Source: Candidatus Hydrogenedentota bacterium
GTDB lineage: Bacteria; Hydrogenedentota; Hydrogenedentia; Hydrogenedentales; SLHB01
Assembly (NCBI GenBank): GCA_034408725.1
Contig: JAWXCN010000077.1
Location: forward strand, 1-11,146
Length of the DNA stretch: 11,146 bases
Direction of reading: 5' to 3'
In this document: one piece after another, positions 1 to 10,210 of the stretch
Position numbering within the stretch: position 1 is the stretch's first letter
Layout of the letters: every line of letters starts with the position of its first letter
Notes under the pieces: model-generated
Seen by the model: only the letters and a program-made list of their open reading frames with translations
What the model was told of the DNA's origin: nothing
Databases searched by the model: none
Made by a program: the position numbers and the translations under genes

Positions 1-20
1 CTCTCCGGAAAGGAGACTTT

Positions 21-128
21 ATGGCAACCGACCCGCCCGCAACGCCGTCGAATCCAACTCGCCGGGCATTTCTACGGACGACCGGAACAACTGCGGCGGC
101 CGCAATCGTTGCGGGGCGAGCACCGGCG
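21..128 (+). other. Tat signal peptide of the 2Fe-2S subunit
   Basis: T-R-R-A-F-L at nt 57-74, followed by an Ala-rich h-region (TTAAAAIVAG) and a candidate A-x-A cleavage site (APA|Q). Confidence 0.8.
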
Positions 129-659
129 CAGCCGACCGTCACTCCCAGTGAGAGCGCGCCAGCCGGGGCACATACGGACGGGCTAAATAACCAAGGCGCT
201 GTCCCAATCACTTTACGGATCAACGGCGAAGATCGCTCACTGAAAGTCGACCCGCGCACGACACTCCTCGACTGCCTGCGCGAAACCGTCGCGCTCACCG
301 GAACGAAGAAGGGTTGCGACCACGGACAATGCGGGGCGTGTACAGTCCATGTGGACGGCCGGCGCGTGAATTCGTGCCTCAGCCTCGCGCTCATGCACGA
401 CGGGGCCGAGATCACGACCATTGAAGGGTTGGGGACGCCCGGCGCGCTACACCCGATGCAGGAGGCGTTTGTCGCGTGCGACGGCTACCAGTGCGGCTAC
501 TGCACGTCCGGGCAGATCATGTCGGCCGTCGCGCTGTTACAGGAACCGTGCGGGCCGGGCGATGCCGATGTGCAGGAGTTGATGAGCGGCAACATCTGCC
601 GGTGCGGGGCGTATCCGAACATCGTCGCGGCGATCCAACAAGTCCGCAACGGCGCGTGA
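21..659 (+). CDS. paoA: Aldehyde oxidoreductase 2Fe-2S subunit with Tat signal (PaoA/YagT family)
   Basis: Xanthine-oxidase-family iron-sulfur motifs GTKKGCDHGQCGACTV...NSC and QCGYC...GNICRC. N-terminal twin-arginine motif TRRAFL. RBS AAGGAG at 11-16. Confidence 0.93.
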   Translation: MATDPPATPSNPTRRAFLRTTGTTAAAAIVAGRAPAQPTVTPSESAPAGAHTDGLNNQGAVPITLRINGEDRSLKVDPRTTLLDCLRETVALTGTKKGCDHGQCGACTVHVDGRRVNSCLSLALMHDGAEITTIEGLGTPGALHPMQEAFVACDGYQCGYCTSGQIMSAVALLQEPCGPGDADVQELMSGNICRCGAYPNIVAAIQQVRNGA

Positions 660-674
660 CGGGAGCGATGGATC

Positions 675-1673
675 ATGCACACCTTTGAGTTCATCCGGCC
701 AGCAGACCCCGAAGAGGCGGTTGCAACGGCGGCGCGGGCGAATACAGCGCAGCAGGGCGCTGATCTGCGATTCGTCGCGGGCGGGACGACCCTAATCGAT
801 CTGATGAAATTAAACGTCGAAACGCCTGCGCGCCTTCTTGACATCAACCGTTTGCCGCTCGACCAGATCGAAGCCGCGGCCGACGGCGGGTTGAAGATTG
901 GCGCCACTGTCCGGAATTCGAATCTCGCCAACCATCCGGCCGTGAAACGGGATTACGCCGTGCTGTCGCAGGCGATTCTTGCGGGCGCATCGGCGCAACT
1001 TCGCAACATGGCGACAACGGCGGGCAATCTGCTCCAACGGACGCGGTGCGTATACTTTCGCGACACGGCGATGCCGTGCAACAAGCGCGAGCCGGGTAGC
1101 GGGTGCCCCGCCATCACCGGTTTTAACCGCTCGCTCGCCATCCTCGGCACGAGCGAACGCTGCATCGCGAGCAATCCGTCGGACATGTGCGTCGCAATGG
1201 CGGCGCTGGAAGCGACGATTCACGTGCAGGGCGCGAATGGGCCGCGCGCGATTCCGTTCGGCGAGTTTCACGTGCTGCCGGGCGAAACGCCCGAACGTGA
1301 AACCGTGCTTGAGCCGGGCGATCTGATCACGCACGTGACGCTTCCTTCGCCGGTGCTGGGAAGCAAGCAGGTCTACCTGAAGTTGCGCGACCGCGCATCG
1401 TATGAGTTCGCGCTGGCGTCGGCGGCGGTCCTGCTGACCGTTGCGGCCGGCAACGTAAGCTACGTCCGAATCGCGCTCGGTGGCGTAGGAACCAGGCCAT
1501 GGCGATCGCTGGAAGCGGAGAGCGCGCTCACGGGCCAACCCGCCAACGAAGCGAACTTTCGTAACGCCGCCGAAGCGGCGATGCGCGACGCGAAGCCGCA
1601 AAGCGAAAATGGTTTCAAGGTCGAGTTGGCCAAGCGTTGCCTGACCCACGCGTTAAAGACCGCCGCAACGTGA
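675..1673 (+). CDS. paoB: Aldehyde oxidoreductase FAD-binding subunit with 4Fe-4S insert (PaoB/YagS family)
   Basis: FAD motifs AGGTTLIDLMK and ASAQLRNMATTAGNLLQ. Cys insert C-x9-C-x8-C-x18-C. C-terminal KLRDRASYEFA and NGFKVEL. RBS GGGAG at 661-665. Confidence 0.93.
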   Translation: MHTFEFIRPADPEEAVATAARANTAQQGADLRFVAGGTTLIDLMKLNVETPARLLDINRLPLDQIEAAADGGLKIGATVRNSNLANHPAVKRDYAVLSQAILAGASAQLRNMATTAGNLLQRTRCVYFRDTAMPCNKREPGSGCPAITGFNRSLAILGTSERCIASNPSDMCVAMAALEATIHVQGANGPRAIPFGEFHVLPGETPERETVLEPGDLITHVTLPSPVLGSKQVYLKLRDRASYEFALASAAVLLTVAAGNVSYVRIALGGVGTRPWRSLEAESALTGQPANEANFRNAAEAAMRDAKPQSENGFKVELAKRCLTHALKTAAT

Positions 1674-1690
1674 CCGGCGGAGGAGCAAAC

Positions 1691-3976
1691 ATGGCAAACA
1701 TAAAAGACAGCAAGGCCGGGTCCGCGACGGGCCGCGGCACGCCGCGCGTGGATGGGCCACTGAAGGTGAGTGGCGTCGCGCAGTACACATCCGATTTTCA
1801 TTTTCCCGGCATGGTTTACGCCGTGCCGGTTGAAGCGACGATTGCGAACGGCCGCGTGACGAAGATTGACACGTCCGCCGCCGATGGCATGCCGGGCGTG
1901 CGCGCGATTTATCATCGGGCAAACATCGGAACCATCTCGCGCTCGGTGCAAGGAACCGGCTTCGAAGGGATCACCGACGAGCGGCGCCCTCCGTTTGAAG
2001 ACGACATTGTGCGTTATTACGGGCAGTACGTCGCGCTCGCCGTCGCCGATACATTCGAGCAAGCGAAGGCCGCAGCCGATGCAGTGCGCGTGACATACGA
2101 GAAAGAGCAGCACAACGTCGAGACGGAATTAAAAGCCGACGACGAGCAGGATGACGTGACGACGACCTCCGAACCCGATCCGCGCCTGCAAAGTCAGCGC
2201 GGAGATTTCGGCGGCGCGTTCGCAAGCGCGCCGGTGAAAGTCGATCAGACGTACGTCACGCCGGCCGAAACACATAACCCGATCGAGTTGCACGCGACAA
2301 CCGCCTCGTGGGACGGCACGACCCTCACGCTCTATGAAACATCGCAGGCGATCTTCAACCATCGCGGCGTTCTTGCGCAGATGTTCGGGTTGCCGATCGA
2401 GCGAGTCCGTGTCGTAAAGAAGTTTCTCGGTTCCGGCTTCGGTGGAAAGCTCTGGCCGTGGTCGCATAGTCCGCTCGCGGCGGCGGCAGCGATGAAGCTC
2501 GGCATTCCGGTAAAACTCGTCGTCAGCCGCAGGATGATGTTTCAAACCGTCGGACACCGTCCACGCACGCAGCAGCGGGTGCGGCTCGGGGCGAGTCCCG
2601 ACGGTAAGCTCCTCGCACTCGAACATGACTACGTAAACCACACCGCGATTCGCGACGGGTATCACGAGAACTGTGGCGAAGCGACGCCGTTCTTCTACAG
2701 CGTGCCGAACCTTCGCGTTCATTTTGGACTTGCCAGACGCAACGTCGGCTCACCCACCGCTATGCGCGGCCCTGGCGCCGTGCCCGGATTGTACGCGACC
2801 GAATCGGCAATGAATGAGCTGGCCGACGCGCTTCAGATCGATCCGGTGACGCTCCGCGAGATGAACGAACCGGAGATCGATGAGGGGTTAAACATTCCGT
2901 TCTCGTCGCGTCACTATCTCGAATGTCTTTCGGTCGGCGCGGAGAAGTTCGGCTGGTCGAAGCGGACGCCCGAAGTCGCCTCAATGAAGCGGGACGGCCT
3001 GACGCTCGGCTGGGGCATGGCGGGCGCCGCCTGGCTCGCGGCACGCTTCCCTGCCGAAGCGAACGTGCAGCTTCGCGACGATGGCGCCGCGCGTGTCGCG
3101 ACCGGCACGCAGGATATCGGCACGGGCACGTACACGGTCCTCGCGCAACTCGTCGCGCAGAAGACGGGGCTACCGCTCGATAAGATCGAAGTGGTGCTCG
3201 GCGATACTTCGCTTCCTCCGGGGCCGATTTCGGGAGGATCGACGGTAACCGGATCGTTGGTGCCGGCTGTCTTCGCGGCGGCAGACAATGCGATCGCGTC
3301 GCTATTCAAGATCGCGACGGCGGCGGATCATAAACCAAATGGAGGGGAAGCCGGCGTCAACGTATTCGCAAATCGCAAGCCCGAAGAACTCGGTATCGAG
3401 AATGGGCGCGTGTTTGTGAAAGAGCGCGGCGCAGACAGCGGCGTCGCGTTCGCCGACGTGCTGCGCCGCGCGAACGTCCGAATGGCGTCGGGGAACGGAA
3501 CGGCGGAAGGGACGTTCGGTGATCCGAATCCGAAACTCTCGACGCACTCCTTTGGCTGTCACTTCGTTGAAGTCACCTGGCAACCGGAGATCGCGCGGCT
3601 GCGCGTGAGCCGCGTCGTCACCGTGATTGACGCCGGTCACATTGTGAATCCGCTGGCTGGGCGTAATCAGATTGAAGGCGCGGTAGTGATGGGGATCGGC
3701 ATGGCGCTGTTCGAGCACACGGTGTATGACAAGATGAGCGGCGCGCCGATCAACAGCAACCTGGCAGATTACGTGGTGGCGGTGAACGCAGATGTGCCGC
3801 CGATCGACGTTCACTTTTTGGATTATCCCGACAAGGAAATCAACGAGCTCGGCGCGAGAGGCATCGGCGAGATCGGCCTGGCTGGTATCGCATCCGCGAT
3901 CACGGCAGCGGTCCACCACGCGACGGGCATTCGCGTGCGGGAGCTGCCGGTGAAGATCGAAGACTTGCTGATGTAA
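1691..3976 (+). CDS. paoC: Aldehyde oxidoreductase molybdopterin-binding subunit (PaoC/YagR family), 761 aa
   Basis: Motifs RVDGPLKVSG, HNPIELH, GSGFGGK, MRGPG, QDIGTG, SGGS, NQIEG and ARGIGEIG (catalytic Glu). Start moved from the ORF-track 1637 to the ATG at 1691, which follows RBS AGGAG at 1681-1685 and removes the overlap with paoB. Confidence 0.93.
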   Translation: MANIKDSKAGSATGRGTPRVDGPLKVSGVAQYTSDFHFPGMVYAVPVEATIANGRVTKIDTSAADGMPGVRAIYHRANIGTISRSVQGTGFEGITDERRPPFEDDIVRYYGQYVALAVADTFEQAKAAADAVRVTYEKEQHNVETELKADDEQDDVTTTSEPDPRLQSQRGDFGGAFASAPVKVDQTYVTPAETHNPIELHATTASWDGTTLTLYETSQAIFNHRGVLAQMFGLPIERVRVVKKFLGSGFGGKLWPWSHSPLAAAAAMKLGIPVKLVVSRRMMFQTVGHRPRTQQRVRLGASPDGKLLALEHDYVNHTAIRDGYHENCGEATPFFYSVPNLRVHFGLARRNVGSPTAMRGPGAVPGLYATESAMNELADALQIDPVTLREMNEPEIDEGLNIPFSSRHYLECLSVGAEKFGWSKRTPEVASMKRDGLTLGWGMAGAAWLAARFPAEANVQLRDDGAARVATGTQDIGTGTYTVLAQLVAQKTGLPLDKIEVVLGDTSLPPGPISGGSTVTGSLVPAVFAAADNAIASLFKIATAADHKPNGGEAGVNVFANRKPEELGIENGRVFVKERGADSGVAFADVLRRANVRMASGNGTAEGTFGDPNPKLSTHSFGCHFVEVTWQPEIARLRVSRVVTVIDAGHIVNPLAGRNQIEGAVVMGIGMALFEHTVYDKMSGAPINSNLADYVVAVNADVPPIDVHFLDYPDKEINELGARGIGEIGLAGIASAITAAVHHATGIRVRELPVKIEDLLM

Positions 3977-3999: not shown

Positions 4000-5355
4000 C
4001 TACTTCCCCTGATACTCGTTCAACTTGTTGCGGAGGGTGCGGACAGAGATGCCGAGAACTTCCGCGGCGCGGGTGCGGTTCTGACCGTGTTTGTCGAGGG
4101 TGCGCATGATGAGTTCGCGTTCCATTTCGTTGACCGTTGTGCCCATTCGCACGCTGACCATGTTGCCTTCCATCTTTTGGCTGAGCGCAGGGCCGAAGGT
4201 GAATTGTTCGGGACCGAGTACGCGCACAGACGAAAGCACGACCGCGCGTTCGATGATGTTCTGCAATTCGCGCACGTTGCCGGGCCAGTCGTAGTCCATG
4301 AACAGTTCGACGGTGTCCGGTGCGAACCCGGTAATCGCGCGATTGTTTTCCTGCACGTAGCGTTTCAGAAAAAAGTCCATAAGCGCGGGGATGTCTTCCT
4401 TCCGTTCGCGCAACGGCGGTAGCACGACGGGGATGACGTTGAGCCGGAAGAACAAGTCCTCGCGCAACTGTCCTTTTTCCACCGCGTCTTCCAGGTTTCG
4501 GTTGGTGGTGCAGATGATGCGCGTGTCGACCTTGATCGGGGTGCTGCCGCCGACGCGTTCGAATTCACGTTCCTGCAACGCGCGGAGAAGTTTTGGTTGC
4601 AACTCGACGCCGATCTCGCTCACCTCATCGAGCAGGAGCGTGCCCGTGTCAGCCAGCTCAAAACGGCCTATCTTGCGTTCGTGCGCGCCGGTGAAGGAGC
4701 CTTTTTCATGCCCGAACAATTCGCTTTCAAGCAGGCCCGCGGACAACGCCGCGCAGTTGACCTTGATGAATGGCCTGTCGCGCCGCGCACCGCCGTAGTG
4801 AATCGCGCGCGCAACCAGTTCCTTGCCGGTGCCGCTTTCGCCGCGAATCAGGATCGTCGCCCTGCTGTCGGCGACTTTCTGAATCTGTTCGTGGACGCGT
4901 TTCAGCGCCTCGCTCTCCCCCACCATCGCGGAAAAATCGTAGCGCCGGTTCAACTCATCTCGCAGGTACCGGTTTTCGCGCGTCATGCATTCGCGCTCGA
5001 TCGCGCGGCCCACGACCAGTTCCAGTTCATCCGGCGTGAACGGTTTCATGATGTAATCGAACGCGCCTTCTTTCAGCGCAGTGACCGCGGTCTCGACTGT
5101 CCCATACGCGGTCATGATGATGCACGCCGTCGCGGGACTCTGCGCGCGCACGGCGCGAAGCACCTCGACGCCATCCACCGGCTGCATCTTCAGATCGGAT
5201 ACGACTACGTCGTAGGTTTTCTTGCCGACCGCCTCGATGCCGTCGCGTCCATTGCCGACCGCGACCACCTCATGCCCCGCGCGCACCAATGCTTCCTGCA
5301 CGTATTCGCGCATCAGCGATTCGTCGTCAATTACCAGTATCGTCGCCTTCGCCAT
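4000..5355 (-). CDS. Sigma54-dependent response regulator (NtrC family; FleR/FlgR/FlbD-like)
   Basis: REC domain (VIDDE, SDLKM, MTAYG, KPF). AAA+ domain with Walker A GESGTGKE, ESELFGHEKGSFTGA, Walker B LLLDEV, DLFFRLNV and WPGNVRELQN. Fis-type HTH NRTRAAEVLGISVRTLRNKL. RBS GGAG overlaps the kinase 3' end, with 2 nt between the genes. The flagellar subfamily call is inference. Confidence 0.93.
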   Translation of the reverse strand: MAKATILVIDDESLMREYVQEALVRAGHEVVAVGNGRDGIEAVGKKTYDVVVSDLKMQPVDGVEVLRAVRAQSPATACIIMTAYGTVETAVTALKEGAFDYIMKPFTPDELELVVGRAIERECMTRENRYLRDELNRRYDFSAMVGESEALKRVHEQIQKVADSRATILIRGESGTGKELVARAIHYGGARRDRPFIKVNCAALSAGLLESELFGHEKGSFTGAHERKIGRFELADTGTLLLDEVSEIGVELQPKLLRALQEREFERVGGSTPIKVDTRIICTTNRNLEDAVEKGQLREDLFFRLNVIPVVLPPLRERKEDIPALMDFFLKRYVQENNRAITGFAPDTVELFMDYDWPGNVRELQNIIERAVVLSSVRVLGPEQFTFGPALSQKMEGNMVSVRMGTTVNEMERELIMRTLDKHGQNRTRAAEVLGISVRTLRNKLNEYQGK

Positions 5356-5357
5356 GC

Positions 5358-6581
5358 TTACTCCGCGCGCGGAATTCCGATTACAAACGTGGCTCCCGCG
5401 CCCGCCTCGCTCGTTGCCCCAATACGTCCGCCATGCGCCTCGACGATCTTCGCCGCGATGGCAAGGCCGAGGCCCGTGCCTTTTTCCTTCGTCGTGAAAA
5501 ACGGCATGAACACTTGTTCAAGCGTCGCCGCGCTCATGCCGCAGCCCGTATCGCACACGCGCAGTTCGACCAGCCCGTCTACGTTCGCGGACTCGACTCG
5601 AATGACGCCTTGTTCCGAAATGCTCTGCACGCCGTTCAACACGAGATTCAATATGACCTGCCGCAGCTTGTCGCTATCGGCCAAAACACGGAGACTGTTA
5701 TCGACATGATTCTCAATTGCGATGGCCTTTTCGCCCGGCTGGACATAGCTGATCGCCGAATCCACGAGTTCGCGGCACGGCACGGGTTGAATGCGCAGTT
5801 GGAGCGGATGGGTGAACTCGAGGAGATCGGTCACCACGCGTTCGAGCGCTTTCGAGCCTTCGAGTATTTTCTCGACCAGCCGCGCGCGCGGATCGACGGC
5901 GTCGATGTCGCGCGCGAGCAATGCGGCGAACCCGCGAATGCCGCCGAGCGGATTGCGGATTTCGTGTGCAACCGTAGCGGCCATCTGGCCTACGGCCGCG
6001 AGGCGATCCTGATGCCGCAATCGCGTGCGCAAGGATTCGATTTCGGTCTGGTCCTGAAACACTTTCACCGAACCGATGCGGCGTTGCGTGCTGTCGAACA
6101 GCGGCGAGTCGCACTCGTTCACGCGCACGTGCCGTCCATCTTTTGCGCGCAATTCCATGGAATGCCGGCCGGCGGGCACTGCGAACTCGCGACCAAACAC
6201 TTCGCGGAACGGCCGGCCGACCGCGTCGATTCGGCCATAACCGAGGGCATGGCTCGCGGCGCGGTTGAAGATCGTGACTACGCCGTGCGTGTCGACCGCG
6301 ATCACGCCGTCGGACATGCTCTCCATGATCGAGCTGAGGTATTCGCCGGTAAGCGCGAGTTCGCGGTTGGTGGAATCGAGTTCATCGTCGAGTTCGCGCA
6401 GCCGCGTCTCGAGCCTGCGATACGACTCTTCCATCGTCTGCGTCGTGCGCGTAAACGCGTCAAACGCATCCGCGAGCGCGCGGATGTCCGCGTCGCCCCC
6501 GGAGAGTCCCTTCCCCAATGCGCTAGGCGCGTCTGTCAATTCGGTCCGGTTCACTGCTGTCCATCGTACGGTATCGGTCAA
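5358..6581 (-). CDS. Soluble coiled-coil/PAS sensor histidine kinase (FleS/FlrB/FlgS-like); start uncertain
   Basis: H-box AHEIRNPL, N-box QVILNLVLNG, G1 DTGCGM, F/G2 FMPFFTTKEKGTGLGL. PAS-like SIMESMSDGVIAVD...FNRAA...FQD. No TM segment. The start may be TTG 6581, GTG 6554, TTG 6539 or TTG 6518; the last removes the overlap with the upstream gene. Confidence 0.9.
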   Translation of the reverse strand: MTDTVRWTAVNRTELTDAPSALGKGLSGGDADIRALADAFDAFTRTTQTMEESYRRLETRLRELDDELDSTNRELALTGEYLSSIMESMSDGVIAVDTHGVVTIFNRAASHALGYGRIDAVGRPFREVFGREFAVPAGRHSMELRAKDGRHVRVNECDSPLFDSTQRRIGSVKVFQDQTEIESLRTRLRHQDRLAAVGQMAATVAHEIRNPLGGIRGFAALLARDIDAVDPRARLVEKILEGSKALERVVTDLLEFTHPLQLRIQPVPCRELVDSAISYVQPGEKAIAIENHVDNSLRVLADSDKLRQVILNLVLNGVQSISEQGVIRVESANVDGLVELRVCDTGCGMSAATLEQVFMPFFTTKEKGTGLGLAIAAKIVEAHGGRIGATSEAGAGATFVIGIPRAE

Positions 6582-6957
6582 TTACATTTTGTCCGCGGCG
6601 TATCGCTTCCCACTCGCGCCGCACGGCCTGACGCTTTTCGCGGGTCTGTCCGGCAGCGCCGTTCACGAGTTGCTCGAGTTGTTCCGCGAGAGCGGCGGCT
6701 TCGGTCGCCAGCGCGCGCACACCCTGGTGACCATTTCCGCTGGGCGCTTTCGATTGCCATTCCCGCAACAGCACGCCAAATTCCTGCTCGAGGGCCGCGC
6801 TGTCGCGCGCATGCGTGGCGGACAACGCTTCCGCCGCGTCGAGATTATCTTCCGTAAGAAAGCGAATGATCTCCGGCTGTTCCTTGAGCATCCGTTTGTA
6901 CAGCGCGATCTGCCGCTCGAAGTAATCGCTGAACCTTTCAAGAATTCCCATGTCCAT
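6523..6957 (-). CDS. Small alpha-helical protein, possibly a FlgN/FliT-like flagellar export chaperone
   Basis: 144 aa, predicted helical/coiled-coil. ATG directly abuts the upstream stop (TAAATG). N-terminal RQIALYKRML and C-terminal Y...RIDRRA resemble FlgN-type chaperones. The CDS is well supported by operon packing; the family call is tentative. Confidence 0.6.
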   Translation of the reverse strand: MDMGILERFSDYFERQIALYKRMLKEQPEIIRFLTEDNLDAAEALSATHARDSAALEQEFGVLLREWQSKAPSGNGHQGVRALATEAAALAEQLEQLVNGAAGQTREKRQAVRREWEAIRRGQNVIDRYRTMDSSEPDRIDRRA

Positions 6958-9900
6958 TTATCCACCCGCCGTTGGCGCGACCTGTTTGCGAAGCCGTTGT
7001 TCGAGTCGCGCATATTCGGCCTTGATGCGCGCATCGTCCGCAAACGCTGAATCGGATGCGGCAAGCTCTTCCAGAATCGGCACGCTGTTCCAATAGTCAT
7101 CCAGTTTCAACATCGTGTTGGCGCGTTGAAACTTCGCCCATACCATGTCCGGACTTGGCGCGGCTTCCTCGGCCTCGCCTGCATCCGCGATCGCTGCAAC
7201 GTTCGTCGCAGCGGTGGCCGGTATAGCCGCAAGCGCGTACGCATCAAGCGCGGCCCGGTAATCGCCAGAGTTGTACAGCGCATCGCCCCACAGCGCCGCG
7301 GTCCGTTGCAATCGCTGGCGTTCTTCCGGGTGCGTCTGGACAAAGCTGTCGAAATCGGTGATCAGCACACGCGCGCGCGCGGTCTTTCCCGTATCGAGAC
7401 AGGCGCGCACGAGGAATTCAAAATCTTGCGGCGTTCTCTCGACGGGGTACGATTCGAACGCCTGCTGCATTTTGGTGAGCGCCTGTTCCGCGTCCACGTC
7501 AAGCAACGCGCGCCCCTGCGCCATCAACAGATCGAACCCCGATTTCGAGGACAGGCGCGTCGCGTCTAACTTTCGGATTACCGGCAGCGCGGACCCCAGC
7601 GCGCCGTTGTTCAGCAACGCCGTCGCCGCGTGGGCCAGCAGTTCCGGATCATTGCTGAGCGACGCAACTTTTTCGTAGGCCGCCGTGGCGCGGCGAGTGA
7701 GCCCAAGATCGCCATAAATGTCGCCGAGCGCGGACTGTATCGCGAGACCATGCGCCTCCGCCCACGGTGAATTCGCGAGCGCCGCTAGCCGGTCTATCGC
7801 GGGCGCAAGTTCGCCACGCTTGTACTCGATTCGCGCAAGCTCGACGGAAGCCTCGGCTGACTGCGGTGTTTGCGGGAACGCATCGAGCACGCGTTTGAAC
7901 AGGATTTCCGCTTTGTCGTTTTCCTGAAACTCAAGATAAATCTTACCGGCGTCGAGCACGAGCACCGGATCGTTGGCGCCTAGTTCATCGGCCTTGACCA
8001 TCGCCTCCGCCGCGCCGCGTGTGTCACCCGCGCTGCTCAACATCAACGCGCGGTTGCGCGCGACATCGGCATTCGTGTCAAATCGTTTCGCGGCCTGCTC
8101 GGCAAGTTCAAGCGCCTGGCCGCGGTCGCCGGTCGCTTCAAGCCCTCGCGTCAACTCGACAACCGCCTCCGGCACATGCGCGCTCTCGGGAAAGAACCCA
8201 AGCAACTCCCGCGCAACGCGCACCGATTCCACCGGCTTTCCCGCCGCGCGATAGGCTTTGGCAAGTTCGATGTAGACCCCGTCGTTGCCGTCCACAGTCG
8301 TGGCGGATTGTAGCCGCGATTCCAGCGCCTGAATCGCGCGCGGCAGGTCGCCCGCCTTTTTCGCGATCCGCGCAAGCCCGAGGGCCGCTTCCGCGCCTAT
8401 ACGCGAATCGGCACGCGCGGCCGCGACCTCACTGTATGCCGCCTCGGCTTCCGCTGTCCGTCCGCTGTCCTCGTAACTCTTCGCCAGCATCATTTGCGCA
8501 TTGCTCTTGTGCGGCGAATCCGGAAATTCCTGCACGATGCGCTGAAGCGAGGATGCCGCCTCGTCCCAAAAATTCAACTCTAGTGAGAGGCGCGCATGTT
8601 GCAACAGGATACTGTCCGCGTTTGGCGTGGCCGGATAGTTCCCCAAGATGCGCGCATAGGTGTCGCGCGCGGTTGTCGGCGATCCCGTGCGCGCATACAA
8701 CTCCGCTTTCCACCCGAGGGCTTCGGGATTGCGCGCATACGCCGGATTCAATGCGACGACGTCTTCTATATTCTTGAGGACCGTTTCGGTATCAAGGTCG
8801 CGGGGTATCGGGGGCAGGGAGCGGTATCCCGACTCGACGTGCAGGAACCGTGCTTCGTCCAGTAACGGGCTGTGTTCCGCACTTCGAATCGCACTTCCCA
8901 ATTGGCGCATCGCGGACACATAGTCGCCTTTGCCCATGAACTCTTTGGCAATGATGATTGCGTCTTCCAGATTCACAGGGCTGGCGTCCGCGGCCATCGG
9001 GGAAACGTCAACGTCTGCATCGCTGCCGGGCCAGAAAAACACCAGCGCGCCAACTCCCGCAATCAGCGAGGCCGCCAACGATGCAACAAGTTTGGCTGGC
9101 AATTTCGCGCCGCGTTTGAGCCGACGCTCGATCACCGGCGATTCGCCTTCGACGGCTGCTTCACCAAGCTCGTCGGGAGTCTCGCCTTCTAACGCCGGTG
9201 TTTGACGCCCCGGCATTCCCATATCGGCGAAATCATCGTCAGACAGCTCGACCGCCATCGTTTCGCCGCGTGACACATCGACACCCCTGGCGGTTCCGGC
9301 CGCGTCTTTTGCGGGCGGCGCCGTGGTGGCCGCGGCCTGCGCGGCCTGCGCAAGCAAGGAGTCGATTAAGTCTTTTCCAAGCGGTTGATCCGCGGCTTCG
9401 GGGTTGGGGACCGCCGCCGCGAGGTTTTCGCGTCCGACATTTGCAATTTCGCTTTCTTGCGCGGCCCGATCCGCCACGTCGTCCGATTCGCGTCCGAGCG
9501 TCAACGGTTGCGGTGCATCCTCGCGGACCATGGGGTGCGCCGCGAGCAGCGCATCGAGTTCGCTTTGTCCCAGCGACACTGCTGCGGCATTTTCCTGCGT
9601 TGAAGTCTCTACCGATGCCGCAATGACAGCGTCCAGATCGGTTTCGCTCAGGCGTTCCGCGGCGGGGGGCAACAAGAGGGCGTCAAGTTCATCTTCCGAC
9701 TGTAGTTCAGTCGCGTCTGCCGGAAATTCCACTGGCTCCGTAGTTGTGCCAGCACGCGAGGTGCGTTTCGTATCGATCTCCACCTGATCAATCCGGCGCA
9801 ATGCCGCTTCCGCCGCGACAAAGTTCGTGGGTTCTGCGTCCGCAAGCGCGAGAAGCGTATCAATCTCTGTTTGGTCGACCGCCTCCGATTGCGCTCTGGC

Positions 9901-10164
9901 ATCTTCCCGCTTGAATTCCGCGGCGTCCGTACGCTTGTTCAGCGCCCGATCAATTTCCGCTTGGGTCAGTATCCCAAGGTCCACAGGCTTGCGAGTGCGA
10001 GGCGCGATCGAATATTCGGGCGGATGCGTTAGCGAGGTCAGCCGCTTCGATTGACTCGTGGCGCGCGCGTTCAATGCCTTCAACGCGGCATCGATTTCGG
10101 CCTGGTCAAGTAGCGGCGGTAAGGATGGCGTCACATTCGATTCCGTATTTTGGTTGTCCGCCAT
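6958..10164 (-). CDS. Single-pass membrane protein: repetitive acidic N-terminal region, TM helix and large TPR region (1068 aa)
   Basis: aa 1-345 are acidic and Ala/Pro-rich with repeated xQxEIDALL-like motifs. A basic patch RRLKRGAKLPAK precedes a hydrophobic helix LVASLAASLIAGVGALVFFW (aa 359-378, nt about 9031-9090). From about aa 400 onward there are many TPR-like units (e.g. YARILGNYPATP, LQRIVQEFPDSP, FKRVLDAFPQTP). GGGGG RBS-like at 10174-10178. Confidence 0.88.
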   Translation of the reverse strand: MADNQNTESNVTPSLPPLLDQAEIDAALKALNARATSQSKRLTSLTHPPEYSIAPRTRKPVDLGILTQAEIDRALNKRTDAAEFKREDARAQSEAVDQTEIDTLLALADAEPTNFVAAEAALRRIDQVEIDTKRTSRAGTTTEPVEFPADATELQSEDELDALLLPPAAERLSETDLDAVIAASVETSTQENAAAVSLGQSELDALLAAHPMVREDAPQPLTLGRESDDVADRAAQESEIANVGRENLAAAVPNPEAADQPLGKDLIDSLLAQAAQAAATTAPPAKDAAGTARGVDVSRGETMAVELSDDDFADMGMPGRQTPALEGETPDELGEAAVEGESPVIERRLKRGAKLPAKLVASLAASLIAGVGALVFFWPGSDADVDVSPMAADASPVNLEDAIIIAKEFMGKGDYVSAMRQLGSAIRSAEHSPLLDEARFLHVESGYRSLPPIPRDLDTETVLKNIEDVVALNPAYARNPEALGWKAELYARTGSPTTARDTYARILGNYPATPNADSILLQHARLSLELNFWDEAASSLQRIVQEFPDSPHKSNAQMMLAKSYEDSGRTAEAEAAYSEVAAARADSRIGAEAALGLARIAKKAGDLPRAIQALESRLQSATTVDGNDGVYIELAKAYRAAGKPVESVRVARELLGFFPESAHVPEAVVELTRGLEATGDRGQALELAEQAAKRFDTNADVARNRALMLSSAGDTRGAAEAMVKADELGANDPVLVLDAGKIYLEFQENDKAEILFKRVLDAFPQTPQSAEASVELARIEYKRGELAPAIDRLAALANSPWAEAHGLAIQSALGDIYGDLGLTRRATAAYEKVASLSNDPELLAHAATALLNNGALGSALPVIRKLDATRLSSKSGFDLLMAQGRALLDVDAEQALTKMQQAFESYPVERTPQDFEFLVRACLDTGKTARARVLITDFDSFVQTHPEERQRLQRTAALWGDALYNSGDYRAALDAYALAAIPATAATNVAAIADAGEAEEAAPSPDMVWAKFQRANTMLKLDDYWNSVPILEELAASDSAFADDARIKAEYARLEQRLRKQVAPTAGG
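9352..10110 (-). repeat. Eight degenerate 10-aa peptide repeats, consensus (L)xQxE(I/L)DALL
   Basis: LDQAEIDAAL (aa19), LTQAEIDRAL (66), VDQTEIDTLL (96), IDQVEIDTKR (125), QSEDELDALL (155), LSETDLDAVI (172), LGQSELDALL (198), LGKDLIDSLL (262). Confidence 0.85.
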
Positions 10165-10195
10165 CCGATAATGCCCCCGATGCTTAGTCTACAAG

Positions 10196-10210
10196 GCACG
10201 AATCGTGCCA
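10196..10210 (-). promoter_or_regulatory. Sigma54 (-24/-12) promoter of the TPR/chaperone/kinase/regulator operon
   Basis: Minus strand reads TGGCACG-ATTC-GTGC against consensus TGGCACG-N4-TTGC, with exact GG-N10-GC spacing. Implied TSS near 10184, about 20 nt before the ATG at 10164. Confidence 0.8.

Follow-up and report, generated by a model that had tools for sequence, protein, structure and literature searches.

The 11,146-nucleotide (nt) stretch of Candidatus Hydrogenedentota DNA analyzed here in full (contig JAWXCN010000077.1 of assembly GCA_034408725.1; hereafter, the window) carries, at positions 6958 to 10164 on the minus strand, a gene for a bitopic protein of 1068 amino acids (aa), in which a predicted cytoplasmic tail is joined by a transmembrane (TM) helix to a predicted periplasmic solenoid of tetratricopeptide repeats (TPR). 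We found that the tail bears an array of eight short peptides resembling the N-terminus of the flagellar switch protein FliM, that these peptides are conserved among homologues, that a sigma-54 two-component system is encoded in the same operon, that the gene co-occurs with flagella, and that the number of peptides co-varies with the presence of CheA. On these grounds we lean, with moderate confidence, toward the reading that the protein is a membrane-tethered, multivalent dock for phosphorylated CheY (CheY~P) on a regulatory scaffold that is linked to the flagellum. In textbook accounts, bacterial chemotaxis signaling ends at the FliM N-terminal peptide, which is regarded as present once per switch subunit. 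CheY binds the EIDAL motif of FliM (PMC6946799).

Copies of the repeat, L-x-Q-x-E-(I/L)-D-A-L-L, were located by a 12-mer scan. The tail (aa 1 to 345; positions 9130 to 10164, on the minus strand like all features of this gene and its operon) contains seven clear copies built on (E/D)(I/L)D and one weaker eighth. Copy 1 (LDQAEIDAALKA) spans aa 19 to 30 (10075 to 10110), copy 2 (LTQAEIDRALNK) aa 66 to 77 (9934 to 9969), and copy 3 (VDQTEIDTLLAL) aa 96 to 107 (9844 to 9879). Copy 4 (IDQVEIDTKRTS; aa 125 to 136, 9757 to 9792) has a degenerate C-terminal half, is also placed by the homologue alignment, and is preceded by a conserved island, AEPTNFVAAEAAL, at aa 108 to 122. Copy 5 (QSEDELDALLLP; aa 155 to 166, 9667 to 9702), copy 6 (LSETDLDAVIAA; aa 172 to 183, 9616 to 9651), and copy 7 (LGQSELDALLAA; aa 198 to 209, 9538 to 9573) follow. 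The membrane-proximal copy 8 (LGKDLIDSLLAQ; aa 262 to 273, 9346 to 9381) lacks an acidic residue ahead of the I/L and was placed by the homologue alignment. Three regular expressions for the motif gave 5, 5, and 7 matches within aa 1 to 345 and none in the other 723 aa, and none of 20,000 composition-preserving shuffles of the tail reached any of these counts. The array of eight that the first-pass annotation had described is therefore real, and several of its details needed revision. Copy-to-copy spacings are 47, 30, 29, 30, 17, 26, and 64 aa, so that the regular interval of about 30 aa holds for copies 2 to 5 and not for the rest; the range proposed for the array, 9352 to 10110, spans copies 1 to 7 and takes in most, not all, of copy 8. 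LSDDDFADM (aa 307 to 315, 9220 to 9246), which had been proposed as a degenerate ninth repeat, was rejected as a copy because it aligns in the close homologues as a conserved island of its own, LS(D/E)(D/E)DFAD.

On which side of the membrane would such an array lie? As first described, the tail is acidic (67 D+E versus 28 K+R in 345 aa) and precedes the only TM helix. Hydropathy analysis gave one strong hydrophobic window, at aa 359 (Kyte-Doolittle [KD] value, 2.34), which marks a helix at about aa 359 to 377 (9034 to 9090). Its N-side flank, RRLKRGAKLPAK, is basic, and its C-side flank, SDADVD, is acidic; by the positive-inside rule, we infer an N-in topology, with the tail in the cytoplasm and the TPR part in the periplasm. 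Both the composition of the tail and an AlphaFold2 model built from 11 homologues (mean predicted local distance difference test [pLDDT] score, 68.8) suggest that the tail is mostly disordered: pLDDT falls below 50 across most of aa 1 to 394, and the confidently modeled portion is an all-alpha solenoid at aa 399 to 1058 (6991 to 8970; pLDDT, about 85 to 93). Within the tail, the model places short helices at aa 21 to 34, 68 to 75, 98 to 110, 115 to 138, 157 to 164, 175 to 182, 200 to 209, and 263 to 279, which correspond to the eight motif copies. The FliM EIDAL peptide is likewise a short helix within a disordered cytoplasmic segment, as is predicted here.

The motifs are more conserved than the linkers. 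Among 11 close homologues (57 to 61% identity), mean pairwise identity was 0.68 in motif columns and 0.50 in the rest of the tail; 156 of 10,000 random motif placements reached 0.68. Conservation was highest in copy 8 (mean pairwise identity, 0.88), and DLG..Q.EID of copy 2 was invariant across the set. Further conserved islands of the tail are AEPTNFAAAEAAL, ERAA..GRENLAAAVP, and LSDDDFAD. In a wider set of 47 distinct homologues, the general pattern Q-x-x-[ILVM]-[DE]-x-[LIVMA]-[LIVMF] matched 270 times in 20,358 residues ahead of the TM helix and 7 times in the 33,056 residues after it, a 63-fold difference in density. Every one of the 47 had at least one copy and 44 had at least two, and the motif consensus was kept across families sharing only 25 to 40% identity. 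Perhaps the array merely reflects neutral expansion of a low-complexity region and is itself without function? The tail is disordered and the copy number is very variable (0 to 23 in the family), as such expansion would predict. However, the conservation of motif columns above linkers, the density ahead of the TM helix, and the persistence of the consensus between distant families all speak against this explanation, which we consider extremely improbable and which is already disfavored. Copy number varies while the motif is held; hence, the tail behaves in the manner typical of linear-motif arrays.

The second conserved island includes a box, ENLAAA, at aa 246 to 251 (9412 to 9429), which we recognized in the homologue alignment. 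Across distant families a (V/I)G(S/R)ENLAAA box is kept 56 to 176 aa ahead of the TM helix, and the strict pattern is present in 39 of 79 complete tails.

We next compared the repeats with the FliM peptide itself. Column frequencies over 237 distinct repeats were L 0.58 at position -2, S/D at -1, E/D 0.74 at +2, I/L at +3, D 0.94 at +4, A 0.47 at +5, L 0.76 at +6, and L/I at +7. The Q and the residue classes at +3, +4, +6, and +7 were preset by the search pattern; the positions that it left unfixed (L at -2, S/D at -1, E/D at +2, and A at +5) agree with LSQxEIDALL. The N-terminus of a solved FliM (8umd_C), ILSQAEIDALLN, fits the same consensus. The repeats thus share L-(S/D/T)-Q-x-(E/D)-(I/L)-D-A-L-L with the EIDAL peptide of FliM, FliY, and some FliN proteins. 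When a hidden Markov model (HMM) of the array, trained on the repeats of homologues without the query protein, was run over the 45,855 six-frame open reading frames (ORFs) of the genome, copies of the query took ranks 1, 3, 6, and 12 (copy 7 was the top match, at 17.4 bits), and the FliM N-terminus ranked 7th at 9.0 bits. The carrier differs from FliM: it has eight copies instead of one, and it is a bitopic TPR membrane protein in which no switch-protein domain (FliM middle/CheC-like or SpoA) was detected, Pfam giving TPR families only.

The TPR protein is a flagellum-associated protein of a single phylum. Full-length relatives, where named, were Hydrogenedentes, Hydrogenedentota, or Hydrogenedentales only, and the E values of TPR-domain matches drop from 4e-67 to 1e-14 at the edge of the family. 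A phmmer search with aa 1 to 345 against 1.84 billion representative sequences returned five proteins, all of them members or fragments of the same family, and no arrays elsewhere. By these sequence searches, the family is confined to Hydrogenedentota. Among 135 genomes of the phylum, the TPR protein was present in 102 and FliM (PF02154) in 107; in a tally by hand, 100 had both and 26 had neither. Joint absence occurred in four families (21 of the 23 genomes of f3, 2 of f8, 1 of f13, and 2 of f1). Two genomes had the TPR protein without FliM (G097 and G126), and seven had FliM without the TPR protein (G091, G106, G114, G131, and three of family f7); several of these one-sided genomes are incomplete assemblies. 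In family f3, FlhG was lost together with FliM and the TPR protein in the 21 genomes. The window's own genome encodes a FliM with the N-terminus MADILSQEEVDLLL and a FliN-type neighbor, flhA-flhF followed by a MinD/ParA-type gene (FlhG by position), and a cheA-cheW-cheX-cheY-cheR-cheD-HDOD-cheY-cheB cluster. The flagellar and chemotaxis genes on which the first-pass interpretation depended are thus present.

Beside fliM, a 308-aa FliN-family protein (L001:249-1175, minus strand, on contig C2 of G000) lacks an N-terminal motif and has an internal MSQDEISAL directly ahead of its SpoA domain.

The TPR gene does not stand alone. It is followed by a gene for a small, soluble, helical protein of 144 aa (6523 to 6957; the stop codon of the TPR gene is at 6958 to 6960), a soluble PAS-HisKA-HATPase histidine kinase (5358 to 6581) with no TM helix (KD maximum, 1.15), and an NtrC-type sigma-54 response regulator (4000 to 5355) with a receiver (REC) domain, an AAA+ domain, and HTH_8; domains were assigned with Pfam and, for the regulator, also NCBIfam. 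The order TPR gene, small protein, kinase was found in 28 of 30 homologous loci, the other two ending at contig limits. In eight longer neighborhoods, these three genes and the regulator formed the only conserved block, with differing flanks. The first-pass annotation had overlooked both the small gene and the phylum-wide, four-gene operon.

To tell candidate partners of the repeats apart, we asked whether repeat number varies with chemotaxis gene content. CheA (PF02895) was found in 69 of the 135 genomes and CheW (PF01584) in 82. Ninety-eight tails were taken, leaving out fragmentary matches (G005, G033, G122, and G127), and 95 were used after G118 and G085, in which the longest ORF was not the homologue, and G040, which had masked residues, were dropped. 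Tails from CheA-positive genomes (n = 62) had a median of 4 copies (mean, 5.9; range, 0 to 23), or 1.52 per 100 aa. Those from genomes with CheW and no CheA (n = 9) had a median of 1 (0.46 per 100 aa), and those from genomes with neither (n = 24) had a median of 2 (range, 0 to 7; 0.62 per 100 aa). All 21 arrays of at least eight copies were in CheA-positive genomes, and restricting the comparison to complete N-termini left the picture unchanged. Seven genera included both CheA states and gave five positive contrasts, two ties, and no negative one; in genus g57, for example, genomes lacking CheA (7.2 to 7.4 Mb) had 3 and 6 copies, while those with CheA (6.1 to 8.0 Mb) had 8 to 23. For genera with a single state, the medians were 4 with CheA and 2 without (genus-level Mann-Whitney test, P = 0.0014). 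The repeats resemble the FliM peptide also in their distribution, being found in flagellated genomes only, with a copy number that follows CheA. About one third of the flagellated genomes of the phylum had no CheA match, and many of these had no CheW either.

Could the repeats instead dock FlhG, the MinD-type regulator of flagellar number, and tie its availability to the co-encoded sigma-54 activator? FlhG is described as interacting with FliM/N via the FliM N-terminus and as inhibiting the sigma-54 activators FlrA and FleQ (PMC12826062), so that FlhG/FleN with FlrA/FleQ offers a model for such an arrangement. The conserved linkage to a sigma-54 regulator would fit, as would the flhA-flhF and MinD/ParA-type genes. 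An FlhG homologue was present in 51 of 61 sampled genomes of the phylum and absent only where FliM was absent. However, because FlhG accompanies flagella everywhere, it leaves the CheA-linked copy number unexplained, and FlhG binding by the tail is itself only a candidate interaction. We consider FlhG an unlikely ligand for the array. Tails in genomes without CheA nevertheless retain one or two copies, often the membrane-proximal one after the ENLAAA box, and FliM keeps LSQ(D/E)E(V/I)DLLL in all five CheA- and CheW-negative genomes whose FliM N-terminus was read (G008, G036, G063, G066, and G114). Either FlhG or some other constant partner could thus be bound at those residual copies.

FliM-type peptides bind a surface of a REC domain in the case of CheY. 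The repeats might accordingly bind the REC domain of the co-encoded regulator and tether it to the membrane, with the tail acting as an anti-activator or as a phosphotransfer scaffold for the soluble kinase. The strict operon linkage across the phylum and a soluble kinase that has no membrane input of its own are in keeping with this idea. Yet the regulator is always present while copies range from 0 to 23 and follow CheA, and we know of no precedent for an NtrC-type REC domain that binds FliM-type peptides. We regard this alternative as very unlikely. Copy number follows CheA, whereas FlhG and the regulator are present regardless; the comparison therefore favors CheY over either of them as the ligand, and points to it as the partner of the variable part of the array only. 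Complex predictions for aa 150 to 215 of the tail with FlhG and with CheY both gave an ipSAE of 0.01; these were run without controls and count as evidence neither way.

The motif had been thought to occur normally once per protein, and this does not hold in general. When the 14-copy tail of homologue P0013 served as query in a word-based search limited to shorter proteins, 15 proteins with 4 to 12 copies in other architectures were found. In P0030, 12 copies precede a FliN C-terminal domain (PF01052; 73.8 bits, cut-off 23.8), and P0031, whose name comes from a Desulfobotulus record, combines 9 copies with a TM region and a FliL domain (25.8 bits, cut-off 24.6). P0029 and P0033 have 8 copies ahead of a TM helix, and several Lentisphaerae/Victivallales proteins have 8 to 12 C-terminal copies after an unannotated N-terminal part of 300 aa. 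The arrays of P0030 and P0031 share with the TPR protein the motif, a copy number of 8 to 12, and linkers of about 30 aa, and in P0031 the array is likewise N-terminal to the TM helix; they differ in carrier domain and in phylum. Since such arrays occur on FliN- and FliL-domain proteins, we conclude that the module recurs on proteins of the flagellar motor. In a literature search that did not extend to supplementary files, EIDAL was treated solely as a motif occurring once, at the N-terminus of FliM, FliY, or FliN, and neither arrays nor this TPR protein was described.

Several results weigh against a CheY~P dock. The array HMM also matched single sites within unrelated folded proteins, at 10 to 15 bits, so that one copy alone is little informative. 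In the reverse direction, an HMM built from 12 distinct FliM N-terminal 14-mers of this phylum (near-invariant DILSQ[DE]E[VI]DLLL) gave 28.5 bits for the genome's own FliM and at best -1.4 bits for the repeats (rank 574). This model is very narrow; scanning the genome contigs with the FliM alignment yielded 80 loci, all close kin of the phylum FliM, and hence only the narrow model. The phylum's FliM differs from the repeats in having V at +3 and L at +5. Because the phylum model misses the repeats, what they resemble is LSQxEIDALL as a general consensus, as opposed to the local FliM variant, and recognition by a FliM-built model, which the first-pass annotation had looked to, was not obtained. 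The copy-number relationship also has exceptions, with CheA-positive genomes that have 0 to 2 copies and CheA- and CheW-negative genomes that have 4 to 7. Related genomes are not independent and assemblies may have gaps, so that the link to CheA is a correlation and the P values overstate it. Moreover, 35 of the 102 genomes with the TPR protein had no CheA match and keep the protein and its operon, so the core role does not depend on chemotaxis; of the first 30 loci, nine are from CheA-negative genomes, and all nine keep the kinase gene. A pure chemotaxis sink does not account for the conserved sigma-54 linkage. Finally, the central step, binding of CheY~P by the tail repeats, is a proposal.

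Might the likeness to FliM, then, be convergent? In that case the repeats would be acidic amphipathic helices with another partner (a FlgN-like protein, the PAS kinase, or a ParA-like ATPase, as with HubP repeats) or part of a generic polar scaffold. The failure of the narrow FliM model is what convergence would predict, the motif is short and holds little information, and the tail has other conserved islands, described above, besides the repeats. Against convergence stand the recurrence of this motif in arrays on FliN and FliL proteins, the tight association with flagella and CheA, and the match of the unconstrained positions to the FliM consensus. We judge convergence to be quite unlikely. 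The proposal of a multivalent membrane dock thus retains the array, its conservation, its predicted sidedness, the flagellar and che genes, and the co-variation with CheA in its favor, and has the failed phylum-FliM HMM against it.

How might a CheY~P dock work? The constant core of the system would be the TPR domain, the TM helix, and the membrane-proximal islands, and it may have a role specific to flagella, probably the control of flagellar genes, that it shares with the FlgN-like protein, the soluble PAS kinase, and the sigma-54 regulator. The distal disordered tail would display a variable number of FliM-N-type helical peptides that capture CheY~P multivalently at the membrane. As a sink or buffer for CheY~P, the tail may then shape the chemotactic response; if the protein sits at the motor, the tail may instead concentrate CheY~P locally; alternatively, its occupancy by CheY~P could be sensed by the operon's kinase and regulator. 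Both the identity of CheY as ligand and any effect on the kinase and regulator are inferred here.

The operon most resembles the FlrBC, FleSR, and FlgSR systems, in which a soluble PAS kinase and an NtrC-type regulator are likewise encoded with a flagellum-restricted gene. Those systems lack a membrane TPR/repeat-tail partner and an operon gene for a FlgN-like protein. The regulator also fell far below the cut-off of 750 bits for the curated NCBIfam models of FlgR (319.9 bits) and FlbD (381.3 bits); its best NCBIfam model, AtoC, was below its cut-off too (514 against 714). Strict sigma-54 sites number 17 in the genome, which also has an rpoN-like ORF; one of the sites lies 181 nt upstream of a rod-type gene. 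Together with the co-occurrence with FliM, that site is an indirect pointer to a possible control of flagellar genes by the operon. A perfect palindrome, GGCACGattCGTGCC, lies within TGGCACGATTCGTGCC at positions 10195 to 10210 (minus strand), 46 nt upstream of the TPR start codon, and fits the GG-N10-GC spacing of a sigma-54 promoter. It occurs in only 1 of 27 homologous loci, and we therefore did not adopt TGGCACGATTCGTGCC as the conserved promoter of the operon.

The small protein matched Pfam FlgN (PF05130) with an E value of 0.0054 and 17.6 bits, below the cut-off of 30.5. FlgN matches at E values up to 0.1 were seen in 8 of 21 of its homologues (best, 0.0008) and were the commonest among noisy coiled-coil matches; a PDB profile search with the small protein found no chaperone. 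With a match below cut-off and in 8 of 21 homologues, we use "FlgN-like" as a lead and no more. From its listed TTG start, the kinase ORF would share its first 59 nt with the end of the small gene (6523 to 6581). In other loci the two genes abut or lie a few bases apart, so the true start here is probably further downstream. At the other end of the operon, the regulator gene converges on three plus-strand genes (3 to 3976) for a molybdoenzyme of the xanthine-dehydrogenase/CO-dehydrogenase type, with 2Fe-2S, FAD, and molybdenum cofactor subunits; these genes are not kept next to the operon in other genomes.

The TPR part itself gave little guidance. Pfam and NCBIfam scans of the 1068-aa protein returned TPR-type families only, at about aa 477 to 976. 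TIGR02795 (YbgF/CpoB) scored 95.0 bits against a cut-off of 90.1 and covered just aa 522 to 615; no tol-pal genes were found among the window genes by Pfam scan, and we read this match as one of shared TPR repeats. Foldseek gave at least 500 generic TPR matches, with Ctr9, Ski3, and OGT at the top. Amid these, at rank 14, was 9hmf_K, a periplasmic scaffold of the Campylobacter jejuni motor (E value, 1.3e-11; TM-scores, 0.19 and 0.26). An ESM Atlas search with the TPR part found nothing beyond generic TPR clusters.

In overall plan, the protein recalls HubP/FimV, which also cross the membrane once, are anchored by a periplasmic domain, and extend into the cytoplasm a long, acidic region of repeats that, like the tail here, could recruit flagellar or chemotaxis proteins. 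The orientation is opposite, however, with the tail N-terminal here; the periplasmic part is TPR without LysM, neither LysM nor a FimV family being detected by Pfam and NCBIfam scans of the protein; and the repeats are 10-aa FliM-like peptides instead of longer acidic repeats. There is no homology between the two.

In Hydrogenedentota, then, a FliM-type peptide has been multiplied up to 23-fold on a membrane protein that is not a switch protein and is operon-locked with a sigma-54 two-component system. We also entertain, as a speculative and on balance unlikely extension, that membrane FliM-peptide arrays on the TPR scaffold, FliL, and FliN form an undescribed, recurrent class of "CheY~P antenna," and that in Hydrogenedentota the co-encoded kinase and sigma-54 regulator would sense how much of the antenna CheY~P occupies, giving chemotaxis a feedback onto the expression of flagellar genes. 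If the repeats bind FlhG instead, the protein would be a new landmark for the control of flagellar number. If they bind CheY~P, it would be a membrane tether that buffers or concentrates the chemotaxis signal in a tunable way and possibly links chemotaxis output to flagellar gene control; neither role has a place in current models.

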